Assembly: GCA_041650895.1 (NCBI GenBank)
Contig: JBAZKF010000001.1
Span: forward strand, 829,181-893,180
Length of the DNA stretch: 64,000 nucleotides
Direction: 5' to 3'
Source of the DNA: Patescibacteria group bacterium
GTDB lineage: Bacteria; Patescibacteriota; Patescibacteriia; 2-01-FULL-39-33
Position 1 is the stretch's first letter, and each line of letters begins with the position of its first letter. The notes beneath the pieces are model-generated. The model saw only the letters and a program-made list of their open reading frames with translations. It was not told where the DNA came from and made no database searches. Positions 2,876-41,406 of the stretch are shown piece after piece. A program made the translations under genes and the position numbers.

Positions 2876-3367
2876 ATGATTGAACGAACATTGGTTTTGC
2901 TTAAACCAGACGCGGTCAAGCGCGGTGTGATGGGGGAGATAATAGCTCGTTTTGAAAAAGTGGGCATGAAGATCGTGGCTTTGCGTTTGGCTTGGGTCAG
3001 TGAAGAGAAGGCCAAAGCGCATTATACCGAAGACATTGCTATTCGACGGGGCGAGCATGTCCGCAATTATTTGGTTGATTTTATCACCTCGGGCCCGGTC
3101 TTAGCTTTTGTAGTTGAGGGCGTAGACGCTATTGAGAATGTGCGAATGATGGTCGGCGCGACTGAGCCGAAATCCGCTATTCCCGGCACTATCCGTGGCG
3201 ATTATTCCCATGTTTCTTATTCTCATGCCGATGCGGAGAAAAAAGTTGTAGCCAACCTTATTCATGCTTCCGCTGACAAGGCTGATGCGGAAAGAGAAAT
3301 TTATGTCTGGTTTAACGAGGATGAGATTTTTGATTACAAGACGGCTTACGAAGCGCATACTTTATAA
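2876..3367 (+). CDS. ndk: Nucleoside diphosphate kinase
   Basis: LVLLKPDAV...GEII.RFE..G..I...TIRGDY...NLIHAS...AEREI..WF. Carries a ~10-aa insertion before the catalytic His and HASA instead of HGSD. Confidence 0.8.
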   Translation: MIERTLVLLKPDAVKRGVMGEIIARFEKVGMKIVALRLAWVSEEKAKAHYTEDIAIRRGEHVRNYLVDFITSGPVLAFVVEGVDAIENVRMMVGATEPKSAIPGTIRGDYSHVSYSHADAEKKVVANLIHASADKADAEREIYVWFNEDEIFDYKTAYEAHTL

Positions 3368-5679: not shown

Positions 5680-5931
5680 AATATCTATAAAAAACAGTAA
5701 AAATATTTTCGGTTAAATTGTTTAAAATTAGCCAAGTTATCCGAAGGATCCCATTCCGGAATTGGGATTTTTTCATTCTCTGCCAACCGCTTGCTTATTG
5801 AACGTGAGCTCTCGTCTGGCACTAATGAACTTTGGTAATTTTCGCTGAAATTCAATGTTTTAATCGTTAAATTTTATTAAATATATAATTTTGATTCTTA
5901 ATTCTTAATTTAAATTTGTAACTATTCAGTT

Positions 5932-6360: not shown

Positions 6361-6476
6361 TTACGAATTTCAAATTACTGATTACTAATTTTCATGTTTA
6401 ATCGCTAATAATTTCGTAAGTGTAATTTGAAGTTTAATTCGTAATTCTTAATTCGTAATTCTTAATTGAATAACAT

Positions 6477-7918: not shown

Positions 7919-7996
7919 GTTTTATAAAATTTAAATATTTATCAGTATTATCATTAAAATTAGTAATCATTAATTCGTAATTTGTAATTAACCAGT

Positions 7997-15347: not shown

Positions 15348-15704
15348 ATGCCTAATCTCACAAAATTAGTAAATTTACTCAAAAAAACAGGTGATAAGGC
15401 CATTGTTTTGGATGAGCACGGTGAACCGGGCTATGTTATTATGACTGTCGCTGATTATGAAGATTTAATTTTAGGTAAATCCGGCGTCTCGGGCTTGACA
15501 GAAGACGAACTTTTAGATAAAATAAATCGTGATATCGCCATTTGGAAGGATAATCAAGAATTAAGAGAATTATCAGTTGATCAGTACAATTTTGCTAAAG
15601 ACATCGGAGTTGTCCCTGGTGATGAAGTTTTCTCTGAATTTAGCCAAAATAGTCAAGAGATTCAGGATGAGGATCGATATTATTTTGAGCCGGTAAGTGG
15701 TTAA
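15348..15704 (+). CDS. Hypothetical protein; N-terminus weakly resembles Phd/YefM antitoxin fold, acidic C-terminus
   Basis: KAIVLDEHGEPGYVIMTVADYEDL resembles the Phd/YefM N-terminal pattern. No toxin partner adjacent. Confidence 0.4.
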   Translation: MPNLTKLVNLLKKTGDKAIVLDEHGEPGYVIMTVADYEDLILGKSGVSGLTEDELLDKINRDIAIWKDNQELRELSVDQYNFAKDIGVVPGDEVFSEFSQNSQEIQDEDRYYFEPVSG

Positions 15705-15777: not shown

Positions 15778-15876
15778 AGTCAAGCTAATAAAAATAATAA
15801 ATAATACTAAATAATCTTGAGTTCTGGCTAAAACTCCCCGGATTTGAGGGCGAGGAACTCAAAAAGGATAACTAAC

Positions 15877-17061
15877 ATGGCAGAAGCATTCAACAGAAGC
15901 AAGCCCCACGTTAATGTGGGTACCATCGGTCACGTCGACCACGGCAAAACCACTTTGACCGCGGCTATTTTGGCTACTTTAAGCGCTCGCGGTTTTACCG
16001 CCCAGCACAAATCAGTCGATCAGATTGACGCCGCTCCGGAAGAAAAAGCCCGCGGTATCACTATTGCGACTGCTCACGTAGAATACGAAACTGAAAAGCG
16101 CCACTATGCTCATGTGGATTGCCCAGGTCATGCTGATTATATCAAGAACATGATCACTGGCGCCGCCCAGATGGACGGAGCTATTTTGGTTGTGGCCGCC
16201 ACTGATGGTCCTATGCCTCAGACTAGAGAGCATATCCTTTTGGCTTATCAAGTCGGCGTGCCTTATATCGTTGTTTTCATTAACAAGGTTGATCAAGCCG
16301 ATCCGGAAATGATTGATTTAGTAGAAGGTGAAATCCGCGAATTGTTGACCAAGTACAATTATCCCGGCGAAACCACCCCGATTATCAAGGGTTCTGCTTT
16401 GAAGGCCTTAGAAAATCCGAATGGTTCTGACGCTGATTGCATTATAGAGTTAATGAACGCCTTGGATACTTATATCCCTGAGCCGCAGCGCGCTACCGAC
16501 CAGTCTTTCTTAATGCCGATTGAAGATGTCTTCTCTATTGAAGGCCGCGGTACCGTTGTTACCGGTAGAATTGAACGCGGTATAATTAAGACTAACGAGG
16601 AAGTAGAAATCGTTGGTTTGGCCGATACTAAGAAAACCGTTGTTACCGGCATCGAAATGTTTAATAAATCTTTAGATGAAGGCAGAGCTGGTGATAATGC
16701 TGGCATTCTCTTGCGCGGTACTAAGAAAGAAGAAGTTGAGCGTGGCCAAGTTTTGGCCAAACCGGGTTCCATTACCCCGCACTCAGAGTTTGAAGCCGAA
16801 GTCTATATCTTGTCTAAAGAAGAAGGCGGACGCCACAAACCCTTCTTTAATGGCTATAAACCACAATTCTATGTCAGAACAACTGACGTAACCGGTGAAA
16901 TCACTTTGCCGGCCGGAACGGAAATGGTTATGCCTGGAGATACCGTTAATGTTATCGTCAAACTAGGTAAAACCGTTGCCATGGAAGAGAAAATGAAATT
17001 CGCTATTCGTGAAGGTGGCCATACTGTCGGCGCCGGCGTTGTAACGAAGATCGTTAAATAA
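15877..17061 (+). CDS. tuf: Elongation factor Tu
   Basis: [38 protein letters not shown] at 15877 chosen over the track's upstream alternative start. Confidence 0.95.
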
Positions 17062-17221: not shown

Positions 17222-17554
17222 ATGACCACTAAAGTAGCCGAGGGCAAAGCCCACCAAAGAATCAGGATCAAGCTTAAAGCGTACGATCATAAGATTATTG
17301 ATAACTCTGCCAAGAAAATTATTGAGAGTTGCCATCGTTTTGGCGTGAAGGTTGTCGGTCCGGTACCCTTGCCTACAGAAAAACGCAAGTACACCGTTAA
17401 CCGTTCCACTTTCGTGCACAAGAATGCACGTGATCAGTTTGAAATGCGTACGCACAAGCGTTTGATTGATATTATTGATCCGACCGCCCAGGTCGTTGAC
17501 GCCTTAATGGGGCTAAATTTGCCAGCTGGCGTAAATATTGAAATTAAAATGTAG
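17222..17554 (+). CDS. rpsJ: 30S ribosomal protein S10
   Basis: Conserved S10 sequence ([16 protein letters not shown]...........GP.PLPT). Confidence 0.95.
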
Positions 17555-17561
17555 TTTTACA

Positions 17562-17807
17562 ATTAGGAACCAAAGACAGTACGTTTTTTTTGGGGGGGGG
17601 AGATGAACGTCAGAAACCCTGACGCGGGACAAGCTATATTCAAGGTGTGGCCGAGGGAGTTACACAGTATTTCCCGTTGATAGCAGGTACTAAGTCCCCC
17701 TCCCCTTATTTTGGGAGAAAGGTCCGTAAACTTCTGATTAGATTTCTGGGGGAGCGCCTCAGTATCGAAAAGAATACCTTTCTCCTTTGTCTCTGGTTCC
17801 TAATTGA
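17562..17807 (+). ncRNA. Candidate structured non-coding element between rpsJ and rplC (identity unknown)
   Basis: No ORF and GC higher than surroundings. 18-bp terminal inverted repeat (AATTAGGAACCAAAGACAG / TGTCTCTGGTTCCTAATT), internal perfect 9-bp pair GGAGAAAGG/CCTTTCTCC, GTCAG-AAACC-CTGAC hairpin, T8G9 tract pairing with CCCCCTCCCC. Confidence 0.3.
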
Positions 17808-18084
17808 TAATTAAAATATAATTCGCTTCGTTATTAAACGAGGCTAGGCCTAAGCGGCCGCTAAAGAAAATGAAGAAAGATCCCAAGCTTAAAGCAGCAA
17901 TCAGCGGGAAAACCTTCATGAGTAGGGAGCAGCCCGCAAAAAGGAGTTTTACCTAAAAACCACAACTTAATAACGACTGTAGCCAATTTTTGTCTTTAGA
18001 AGATGAATTGGGTAGGGCGTGTTAAAGTTAAGGTTCGGGTAAAACCGGACTTTTTGTTTAAATAGCAAATGTGATTCAAAGATT

Positions 18085-18897
18085 ATGAAATTCATTTTGG
18101 GAAAAAAAGTAGAAATGACACAGCTGTACAAAGAAGATGGCACAGTTGTTCCAGTAACGGCAGTTTTGGCTTTGCCTAATGTTGTTACTCAAGTCAAATC
18201 AACCGATACCAAGGATGGCTATAACGCTGTTCAAGTCGGTTTTGGCGTTGATAAAAAACCGGGTAAATCCAGAATCGGTCATTTGAAGGATTTGCCATTA
18301 GTTAAAACCGTCCGCGAATTCCGCTTGGCCGATAAAGAGGTTGCCGGTGTTAAACGCGGTGACATTATTACGGTGGAAGTTTTTGCCGAAGGCGATGCTA
18401 TCGCTGTAACTGGTCAATCCAAGGGTAAGGGTTTTCAGGGCGTGGTCAAACGTCATGGTTTTCATGGTCAGAATTCTTCTCATGGCCATAAGGATCAAGA
18501 AAGAATGCCTGGTTCTATTGGCGCCGGTGGAGTTCAGCGTGTTTTTAAGGGCCGGAGAATGGCAGGACAAATGGGTGATGAGCAGGTTACTGTATCCGGA
18601 CTTCAGATTATTGCCGTTGAACCGGAAAAAAACATTTTATATGTCAAAGGCGCTGTTCCTGGAGCCCGTCATGGTTTGATCATGATTTACGGTCCCGGAG
18701 AGATGATAATCAAGCAAGAAGAGCCGATGAAAGAAAATTTAGCGGAACAAGTCGTTGAAGCTCCGATTGCTGAAACTAAGGAAGTTAAGGTGGAATCACC
18801 GGAAGAAAGTGTTACTGAGACTAAAACTGAAACTAAAGAAACTATTGTTGAAGCAGCACCAGTTGAAGAAAATAAAATCGAAGAAGCAAAAGAATAA
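18085..18897 (+). CDS. rplC: 50S ribosomal protein L3 with ~60-aa acidic/lysine-rich C-terminal extension
   Basis: MKFILGKKVEMTQLY...GKGFQGVVKRHGF.G. Extension is rich in E/K/T/V. Confidence 0.9.
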   Translation: MKFILGKKVEMTQLYKEDGTVVPVTAVLALPNVVTQVKSTDTKDGYNAVQVGFGVDKKPGKSRIGHLKDLPLVKTVREFRLADKEVAGVKRGDIITVEVFAEGDAIAVTGQSKGKGFQGVVKRHGFHGQNSSHGHKDQERMPGSIGAGGVQRVFKGRRMAGQMGDEQVTVSGLQIIAVEPEKNILYVKGAVPGARHGLIMIYGPGEMIIKQEEPMKENLAEQVVEAPIAETKEVKVESPEESVTETKTETKETIVEAAPVEENKIEEAKE

Positions 18898-18962: not shown

Positions 18963-19691
18963 ATGAAATTCCCCGTATACAATTATCAAGGTGAACAAAT
19001 AAAAGATACAGAGCTGCCCGCTCGGTTGTTTGGCCGTGCCGTCAATACAGCCGTAGTTCATCAAGTGGTTATTGCCCAAGAAGCTAATTCTCGCGAAGTT
19101 CTGGCTCACACCAAAACTCGGGCGGAAGTACGCGGTGGCGGTAAGAAACCCTGGCGCCAAAAAGGCACCGGTCGCGCTCGCCACGGTTCCAGCCGTTCCC
19201 CGATCTGGGTTGGCGGCGGTGTAACTTTTGGTCCGAGAAATGATCGCAATTTCACCCAAAAGGTAAATAAAAAAATGAAGCAAGCGGCTCTGGCTATGTG
19301 TTTATCCGATAAAGCCGCCAGCAAGGGATTAATCATTTTTGATAAATTGGAGAATCCTGCCGGTAGAACCAAGGACTTGAATGCTTGGCTTAAAAATATT
19401 AAGAAAGCGATTACTGGACTGAAAGACAGCAAGAAATTTCTTTTGGTGATGAGCGAAGCGGATGATAAACTGACTCGTGCCGCTAAGAATCTTAAAGGCG
19501 TGTCAACGATTTCTGCCAAGAGCTTGAATTGTGTTGATCTGCTTAAGGCCGATGCTTTGCTGGTTGGTATCAAATCAGTGGAAGAAATTGATAAAGCTTA
19601 TAAACAAGTTAAAGAAAAAACTAAGGAAAAGGCCGTAGTCAAAGTTGCTAAGGTTAAGAAGACCAAGACCGCTAAGACTAAGACTAAGTAA
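18963..19691 (+). CDS. rplD: 50S ribosomal protein L4 with lysine-rich C-terminal tail
   Basis: [40 protein letters not shown] at 18963 (MKFPVYNY). Confidence 0.9.
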
Positions 19692-19695
19692 GCAT

Positions 19696-20133
19696 ATGGG
19701 TTTATTCAATAAAAAAACAACTAAAGAAGAAGAACCGAAGGTTGTGGCGGAAAAAGCCATTGAAGTTAAAGAAGAAGCCAAGGCTGTTAAGGCTGTTAAA
19801 CCAGTGAAGTCTGCTAAGGCCGTTACTGATAAAAGCAGTGTTAAGGTTTCGGTTTATGGCGTTTTGATCGCTCCATTATTGACGGAGAAGACCGCTTCCG
19901 GCGAAGCTAATAACCAATATGCCTTTGCGATTGACGCCAAGGCGACTAAGAATGAAGTTAAAAAAGCGGTAGAAAGCCGCTATGGCTTGAAGCCGGTTAG
20001 TGTTAATGTTTCAAATGTACGCGGTAAATTCGTCCGTTTCGGTCAGCAATTCGGCAAGCGTAAGAATTGGAAAAAAGCCATTGTTACCTTACCCAAAGGC
20101 AAGTCGATTAATGTTTATGAAGGTATTAAATAA
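19696..20133 (+). CDS. rplW: 50S ribosomal protein L23 with ~50-aa K/E/A/V-rich N-terminal extension
   Basis: C-terminal part matches L23 (LLTEK....E.N.Y.F.....ATK.E.K.AVE..Y...V..VN). ATG at 19696 is 4 nt after the rplD stop. Confidence 0.85.
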   Translation: MGLFNKKTTKEEEPKVVAEKAIEVKEEAKAVKAVKPVKSAKAVTDKSSVKVSVYGVLIAPLLTEKTASGEANNQYAFAIDAKATKNEVKKAVESRYGLKPVSVNVSNVRGKFVRFGQQFGKRKNWKKAIVTLPKGKSINVYEGIK

Positions 20134-22690: not shown

Positions 22691-22718
22691 AATTACGGAT
22701 TACGGATTACGGATTACG
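22691..22718 (+). repeat. Tandem heptamer repeat (CGGATTA x3 + CGGCTTA) in rpsC-rplP spacer, followed by an inverted copy (CCGTAAT)
   Basis: Repeat read directly in sequence. Belongs to the ATTACG/CGTAAT motif family. Confidence 0.6.
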
Positions 22719-22795
22719 GCTTAGGCCTAATTTACAATCCGTAATTGTCAGAATAATGATTCGTAGTTCGTAATTTGAAATTCGTAATTGAATAT

Positions 22796-41303: not shown

Positions 41304-41406
41304 AACCAATTACAAATCAATAATTGCTAATTATAATATTCAGTTGTATCTTTGTTTCGTAATTCGTAATTTGAAATTCGTAATCTTATGAGTGATTATT
41401 GATAAT

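Follow-up and report, generated by a model that had tools for sequence, protein, structure and literature searches.

Two candidate structured RNAs in the rpsJ-rplC spacer of a Patescibacteria ribosomal-protein operon

Structured RNA segments within or in front of bacterial transcripts are known in several forms. RNase III cuts the intervening sequences (IVS) of bacterial 23S rRNA out of the transcript, and this does not harm the host RNA. 6S RNA forms a rod that has no branches but a large central bubble, and the S10 operon of Escherichia coli is subject to L4-mediated attenuation. Among small non-coding inserts, the Correia repeat-enclosed elements of Neisseria as well as ERIC, RUP and BOX occur dispersed, with tens to hundreds of copies in a genome, and are flanked by short duplications (TA in the case of Correia). 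Correia elements are co-transcribed, and RNase III can bind or cleave them or be blocked (PMC2649163, PMC2229807). A candidate L4 leader has been described upstream of rplC/rplD in Archaeoglobi (PMC7247131). Here we describe a spacer that lies in a ribosomal-protein operon of an uncultured groundwater bacterium of the Patescibacteria group and consists of two parts, the first of which, Part A, resembles in kind a transcribed palindromic insert, and the second, Part B, a ribosomal-protein leader.

The window, by which we mean the whole 64-kb stretch of DNA that was analysed, carries on its + strand the genes tuf (15844-17061), rpsJ (17222-17554) and rplC (18085-18897), followed by rplD, rplW and rplB. 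With 530 bp, the gap between rpsJ and rplC is the longest of all intergenic gaps in the window. As a sequence-only reading of this DNA had stated, the gap contains no open reading frame of 60 aa or more, the longest encoding 55 aa on the + strand and 58 aa on the - strand. That reading had also called the gap GC-elevated; its GC content of 0.42 does exceed that of most other intergenic gaps in the window (0.20-0.40), although the elevation is modest. Compared with shuffled sequence, the fold of the whole gap reaches z = -6.2. The gap divides into Part A at 17555-17821 and Part B at about 17824-18060, and neither of them matches any curated RNA family; searches of the literature on Patescibacteria for elements of this sort gave nothing relevant.

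Four small open reading frames in the gap were considered as genes, one of 55 aa, one of 39 aa, one of 25 codons from the arm of Part A called P2 below (MNVRNPDAG...) and one of 28 codons from the Part B motif (MKKDP...). They were rejected because a Pfam search of all four gave no match and because neither start codons nor frames are conserved: relatives have AUA, ACG or no start instead, with frame shifts and in-frame stops between conserved blocks. In a promoter scan of the gap no site passed, and a TATAAT within the right copy of the direct repeat described below belongs to the window lineage only. ARAGORN found neither a tRNA nor a tmRNA in the gap.

Some features of the surrounding sequence deserve mention in their own right. 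L3 (18085-18897) carries at its C terminus an extension of about 60 residues rich in Glu and Lys, L4 (18906-19691) a Lys-rich tail and the L23 reading frame (19645-20133) a long N-terminal extension, each of which varies in length among related loci. A 118-aa gene upstream of tuf (15348-15704) is kept in several relatives, and its counterpart in one related locus has a weak match to Phd/YefM antitoxins. Tandem 7-nt repeats, TTCGTAA/TTCTTAA, are located directly 5' of start codons (e.g. ...TTCGTAATTGAATATATG) at 6438-6470, 22760-22790 and 41356-41385 and also at 5895-5910 and 7974-7989 of the window; they recur across several intergenic spacers, rpsC-rplP included, and could represent a motif of promoters or 5'-UTRs or else a family of dispersed repeats. 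Palindromic ATTACGG repeats are present at 22699-22745.

Part A is predicted to fold into a three-way junction, in which a 20-bp closing helix, P1, encloses the side arm P2 and the arm P3; all of its features are given on the + strand. The 5' arm of P1, CAATTAGGAACCAAAGACAG, lies at 17560-17579, starts 5 nt past the rpsJ stop codon and is 20/20 identical to that of a homologous locus, L009, while its 3' arm, TTGTCTCTGGTTCCTAATTG, occupies 17787-17806. The underlying inverted repeat had been reported as 18 bp long and with coordinates that were 1-2 nt off; it comprises 19 nt with one mismatch (17560-17578/17788-17806), or 20 bp with a terminal G.U pair, and is unique within the 64 kb, where 0.03 matches would be expected by chance. 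P1 is followed by junction J1/2, TACG plus T8 (17580-17591), which reads (N)ACAUUUU in the homologues, and by arm P2 (17592-17705), whose base helix G9AGA/TCCCCCTCCCC corresponds to GGGGAGAGA/TCTCTCCCC in relatives. The T8G9 tract at 17584-17600, with T8 at 17584-17591 and G9 at 17592-17600, indeed has the complementary downstream stretch that had been proposed for it, since it faces TCCCCCTCCCC at 17695-17705. P2 includes the hairpin GTCAGAAACCCTGAC at 17609-17623, which had been noted as well, and its distal part is hypervariable.

Junction J2/3, TTATTTT (17706-17712), connects P2 to P3 (17713-17786), a long irregular hairpin with the base helix GGGAGAAAGGT/ACCTTTCTCCT. Its perfect inner pair, previously seen as 9 bp, extends to 10 nt, GGAGAAAGGT/ACCTTTCTCC, at 17714-17723/17776-17785. 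As P3 adjoins P1 without a linker, it probably stacks coaxially on it, and P1, which at 20 bp has the length of near-perfect double-stranded RNA of an RNase III stem (about 20 bp or more), runs on into P3. The region 17555-17815 folds with -98.3 kcal/mol and z = -5.1 against shuffled sequence, in line with its earlier description as a highly structured element. A long-range pairing between 17670-17684 and 17897-17911 is not conserved in L009 and was for that reason treated as chance.

The history of the insert can be read from close relatives. Eight contigs (L001-L008) encode exactly the same S10 protein as the window. Three of them, L002, L005 and L007, come from different samples and are identical to the window across the gap, T8G9 included, so these three independent assemblies give no sign of length heterogeneity in the tract. 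The filled allele is carried by the samples ERZ27247363, SRR8542065 and JGI 3300037067. The others, L001, L003, L004, L006 and L008, represent a related species and by alignment lack exactly 267 bp, a unit that corresponds to 17555-17821 on the + strand and comprises Part A proper (17555-17808) plus one copy of a direct repeat. Gene calls agree with this, the gap being 262 nt long when empty and 530-560 nt when filled. At the empty site GAAATTAAAATGTAA runs directly into GTCTCTTCG, whereas at the filled site AATTAAAATGTAG is followed by TTTTA, the element, AT, AATTAAAATATAA and TTCGCTTCG. The final 13 nt of rpsJ, including the stop codon, are doubled around the insert. The left copy, AATTAAAATGTAG at 17542-17554 (+ strand), contains the last rpsJ codons and the stop and is the single copy of the empty-site lineage; the right copy, AATTAAAATATAA at 17809-17821 (+ strand), shares 11 of its 13 positions with the left one. 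The repeat arms are set off from the duplication by 5 nt at the left end and by 2 nt at the right. Since all relatives, with or without the insert, conserve the left copy as coding sequence, the insertion most plausibly created the right copy as a duplication.

To follow the element further, collections were scanned with exact 18-19-mers of the window-type arm. In one genome per species (185,579 species) paired arms were found only in L009, a Candidatus Buchananbacteria MAG, where the pair again lies between rpsJ and rplC. In the metagenome collection the only paired match was L020, which is the same contig as L009; the remaining matches are single-arm, come from unrelated organisms with nothing else in common with the element and are attributed to chance. 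More distant loci were all reached through S10 homologues, so the statement that the element occurs only at this site is limited by this sampling.

Within these loci, the same rpsJ-rplC site is occupied by homologues of Part A in no fewer than six further lineages of Patescibacteria (Buchananbacteria-like). They include copies of about 280 nt (L038-40) and of about 340 nt with three arms (L027-35), a diverged copy (L026), two tandem copies, one per subtype (L057-59), and the closing hairpin P1 alone, about 60 nt long (L061); overall, members of the family are between about 60 and about 350 nt long. Part A is missing from at least eight related lineages (L001-type, L023, L024, L036, L041, L044, L046 and L065). 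Carriers are spread over a rough S10+L3 tree, which fits either several precise losses or several gains at one spot. The window, the L001-type and L009 are equidistant, with four-fold identities of 0.61-0.65, as would suit a gain of the element as well as a loss.

In several respects Part A behaves like the Correia, ERIC, RUP and BOX elements: it is a small non-coding insert with inverted-repeat ends, it lies in an intergenic region within an operon, it is present or absent at orthologous loci, and it is predicted to form a hairpin in the mRNA. Unlike them, it is found once per genome and always at the rpsJ-rplC site, among loci reached via S10, and it combines a 13-nt duplication with a branched core, covarying internal helices and deep cross-species conservation. 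Similarly, it shares with the 23S rRNA IVS a sporadic occurrence among close relatives, a long closing stem and a variable interior. The IVS, in contrast, replace loops of rRNA helices, whereas Part A lies in an mRNA spacer.

These similarities bear on a reading of Part A as a selfish, non-autonomous transposon (MITE) or what is left of one, residing in one of the few permissive intergenic sites of a compact genome, with a fold that is a by-product of its terminal repeats and selection for harmless closure only. A MITE-like insertion had been among the initial suggestions, and part of that description holds: there are terminal inverted repeats of 19-20 nt with one mismatch, an exact 267-bp empty site and a 13-nt target duplication (11/13), together with a lack of coding capacity and presence/absence polymorphism. 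The tandem pair of L057, the internally deleted solo-P1 copy of L061 and the unrelated palindrome-closed elements nested in the same spacer of L027, L038, L057 and L061 would also suit a mobile element. Dispersal, in contrast, did not emerge from the collections scanned with exact 19-mer arms. A search for further copies of the terminal repeats returned a single copy in the window, and elsewhere exact arms in one other species, at the orthologous site only. A mismatch search, blastn and an inverted-repeat scan likewise found no second copy of Part A in the 64 kb, and blastn found none outside the S10-L3 spacers of the fetched loci. Viral contigs, plasmids and phages gave no match, and no autonomous element or transposase gene flanked by Part A arms was found in the genome, metagenome, viral, plasmid and phage collections. 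The gaps of 5 nt (left) and 2 nt (right) between duplication and arms are also atypical of a MITE.

A further argument comes from the conservation of the fold. Minimum-energy folds of 5 of the 6 full-length homologues examined share a common P1/P2/P3 plan; that of L027 deviates, and its arms were assigned by homology. In the shared plan a closing helix P1 of 19-23 bp is followed by a junction ending in a U-run and by P2, which in relatives has the base GGGGAGAGA/UCUCUCCCC. A short U-rich junction follows, and P3, with the base GGAGAAAGG/CCUUUCUCC, enters the 3' strand of P1 without a linker. Three-arm copies possess one additional arm in the same style. Across the homologues 96.6% of the P1 pairs are formed, and four pairs have changed on both sides, including a series of G-C, G.U and A-U; the covariation score of P1 was reached by none of 500 shuffles. 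The internal helices P2 and P3 covary too, and where relatives have GGGGAGAGA/UCUCUCCCC, the G9 tract of the window and its partner show A to G and U to C changes, on both sides of the helix.

The type of pairs retained distinguishes between the strands. Read on the + (operon) strand, P1 of all homologues comprises 117 Watson-Crick, 11 G.U and 5 mismatched pairs, whereas the - strand would give 117 Watson-Crick, 2 G.U and 14 mismatched pairs. P3 exhibits the same + strand G.U bias, and of the two strands it is the + strand that gives the more stable fold in 6 of 7 homologues. The asymmetry of the G.U pairs together with the more stable + strand fold indicates that the structure is selected on the sense strand of the operon, in RNA.

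Sequence identity points in the same direction. Between the window and L009, P1 is identical at 40/40 positions and P3, loops included, at 70/74, while four-fold degenerate sites of tuf, rpsJ, rplC and rplD are 61-65% identical (about 62% for neutral sites); relative to the empty-site relatives of the L001-type, four-fold sites are about 65% identical. Distal P2 retains only 40% identity to L009 but keeps its hairpins (GUGUG/UACAC vs GUGGU/ACCAC). Since P1 and P3 lie far above the four-fold sites, the core is under purifying selection and is no neutral relic. Judging from these comparisons, both sequence and fold of P1 and P3 are kept by selection on the transcript, and the original proposal of a structured RNA gains from the compensatory changes, the excess of G.U pairs on the operon strand and the purifying selection. 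For a transposon whose fold is a by-product, covariation of P2 and P3, 95% conservation of P3 with its loops against 62% at neutral sites, and G.U pairs that point to RNA and away from duplex DNA are difficult to accommodate, and we consider that reading unlikely. The anatomy of Part A, with terminal inverted repeats and a 13-nt duplication, is nevertheless that of a transposon relic, so that part of the apparent selection could be for harmless folding only.

If Part A is an RNA, it might be a known one. Rfam 15 gave nothing relevant for the window region at E<=10, where 6S, ribozymes, RNase P, tmRNA, SRP and riboswitches were considered, nor for five homologous loci at E<=5. The permissive scans returned chance matches only (miRNA-like AT-rich hairpins, a CRISPR repeat, a thermometer), and at gathering thresholds a single tRNA passes in the whole window and nothing else. 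Because these searches came back empty, 6S, SRP, RNase P, known ribozymes and riboswitches are not supported for Part A. The 6S-like regulator or ribozyme offered by the sequence-only reading thus found no backing, and its failure to recognise RNase P, tmRNA or SRP signatures is matched by Rfam at E<=10. Part A does resemble 6S RNA in being long, mostly double-stranded, closed and about 200-250 nt in size; it differs in its three-way junction and variable arms, in the missing Rfam 6S match and in being dispensable in sister species.

More generally, Part A could be a separate small-RNA gene with a trans-acting or housekeeping role that is freed by cleavage of the P1 stem, as rRNAs are. A structured interior bracketed by a long closing helix, the strong z-score of the fold and the purifying selection would all agree with such a gene. 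On the other hand, the interior, which would be the part acting in trans, is the least conserved (0.40 identity, large length changes), sister lineages do without the element, the gap contains no promoter-like site, and neither the window nor the homologues match 6S, SRP, RNase P, tmRNA or any other Rfam family. We regard a small-RNA gene as very improbable.

With regard to Part B, the sequence-only reading had taken S10 and L3 genes to be normally adjacent, which does not apply in this clade: even relatives that lack the insert keep the two genes apart by a conserved spacer of about 190-330 nt, which contains leader and terminator. The remainder of the gap that corresponds to Part B (262-276 nt) is 88-89% identical between filled and empty lineages. 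Its motif at 17864-17927 (+ strand) consists of a helix P1, AUGAAG/CUUCAU, an internal loop, AAAGA/AAAC, and a helix P2, UCCC/GGGA, with a variable hairpin cap; the related spacers examined all share the consensus NUGGAG-AAAGA-UCCC...GGGA-AAAC-CUCCAN. Of the Part B pairs 95.8% form, 5 of 10 are compensatory, and none of 500 shuffles match this. A covariance model, R1, has one match in the window with 80.8 bits, the next reaching 16 bits, and recovers a single copy of the motif from each of 18 of 19 related loci, some of which had not contributed to the model. R1 misses L061 because of a large insertion inside the Part B hairpin; in this locus about 250 nt are inserted in the apical hairpin between GAUCCC and GGGGAAAACC (~920-1190).

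The second hairpin with a T-run before rplC that had been pointed out is present at 18030-18060 (+ strand), 25 nt upstream of the rplC start, and looks like an intrinsic terminator. A hairpin with U5-8 occurs in 14 of 15 lineages examined, 50-150 nt past the motif and 20-60 nt before rplC. In many lineages, though not in all, the terminator loop UUAAGAUA is complementary to an upstream stretch, UAUCUUAA, a sign of a possible antiterminator; this pairing is less clear in the clade to which the window belongs. A covarying structure directly upstream of ribosomal-protein genes and a terminator platform are features of ribosomal-protein leaders, and on comparative evidence Part B is a candidate for such a leader working by attenuation. 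It resembles the E. coli S10 leader and the Archaeoglobi L4 leader (PMC7247131) in being structured, in having a terminator and in its place before rplC-rplD-rplW-rplB, but differs from both in that its sequence and fold are unrelated to theirs and have no Rfam match. By analogy, its ligand is most likely L4. In a simple search, no sequence of E. coli 16S or 23S rRNA was found that Part B might mimic. As Part B lies downstream of rpsJ, S10 itself would escape control, unlike in the case of the E. coli S10 leader.

Part A might also be a second protein-binding operator that adds control to the rpsJ/rplC unit, with its three-way junction and conserved helices bound by a ribosomal or transcription protein. 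Its sequence is conserved beyond pairing in P1, in the bases of P2 and P3 and in the junctions, the 5' strand of P3, GGAGAAAGGUCC, resembles the 5' half of Part B, GGAGAAAGAUCC, and three-way junctions are classic sites of ribosomal proteins, for example S15 (PMC7247131). But many close relatives with the same proteins have no Part A, the number of arms varies from 0 to 3, and neither the search of E. coli 16S/23S rRNA nor Rfam detected similarity to rRNA; we regard an operator as distinctly unlikely. An origin of Part A by tandem duplication of the leader was also considered and rejected, for the lengths are similar (267 vs about 276 nt) but there is no in-register similarity.

We propose that the gap contains two RNAs on the operon strand, with Part B as an ancestral ribosomal-protein leader and Part A as an optional inserted module with a role in cis in processing or stability, an interpretation to which we give about an even chance. 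Part B would be the ancestral spacer of the clade, in which the two-helix motif comes first and an intrinsic terminator then directly precedes rplC. A product of the operon, most likely L4 by analogy to E. coli, would bind Part B and favour termination, with the hairpin at 18030-18060 as the attenuator. Part A would have been inserted right after the rpsJ stop, duplicating the last 13 nt of rpsJ, as an optional non-coding module upstream of an intact leader. Its fold would bring both flanks together again, and an insert that closes in this manner would leave the context of the leader intact.

As fold and sequence of P1 and P3 are under selection at the transcript level, Part A most likely acts in cis, presumably on the polycistronic tuf-rpsJ-rplC RNA. 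The continuous duplex of P1 and P3, at least 30 bp, might serve as a target of an RNase III-type enzyme or as a barrier to exonucleases. In either role Part A would set the rpsJ portion of the transcript apart from the regulated rplC unit and leave the leader undisturbed. Since many close relatives lack it, any such function would be dispensable or lineage-specific. The strong sequence conservation of P1 also exceeds what a generic double-strand-specific RNase needs of its target and could instead reflect a recognition site for a sequence-specific protein or at the DNA level.

In a more far-reaching interpretation, Part A would stand for a new class of non-coding insertion elements that are site-specific, entering the 3' end of rpsJ in Patescibacteria again and again with a 13-nt duplication and tandem stacking, and it would have been domesticated as a functional RNA domain of the operon transcript. 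We view this interpretation as doubtful. If it were true, the element would be a mobile structured RNA whose selected phenotype lies at the RNA level.

Other inserts of the same spacers were recorded along the way. An element of about 178 nt, likewise closed and structured but different from Part A, has the ends TGAGATAGCTACAAAA/TTTTGTAGCTATCTCA and sits directly after the rpsJ stop in L057 (1927-2104) and L061 (634-811) and is 90% identical between both. In L057 the spacer is 1023 nt long and contains four stacked palindrome-closed elements. AT-rich palindromes, CTACAAAT...ATTTGTAG, are found in L027 (1845-1924 and 2506-2569) and L038 (~2400-2500 and 3198-3309), with two occurrences in one spacer and others at further positions of the locus; they give rise to spurious miRNA-like hairpins in Rfam and look like a dispersed repeat family of those genomes. 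An identical 14-mer, GATTGGCCAAGCGA, occurs in the interior of the L026 element (~650-665) and in the leader region of L041 (~2045-2060), which hints that spacers may have exchanged sub-modules.

The genomes of candidate-phyla-radiation bacteria are tiny, with few known regulatory RNAs, and this one gap yields two candidate RNA families that are absent from Rfam. As a leader or attenuator, Part B would place the L3-L4 block, and not S10 (NusE), under feedback control. Part A represents a structured insert with a clean pair of filled and empty sites. RNA-level selection on an anatomy like that of a transposon relic would make it a natural test case for how inserted DNA joins, or is tolerated in, the transcript of an essential operon. 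Both parts are short and well delimited and hence suited to direct biochemistry.
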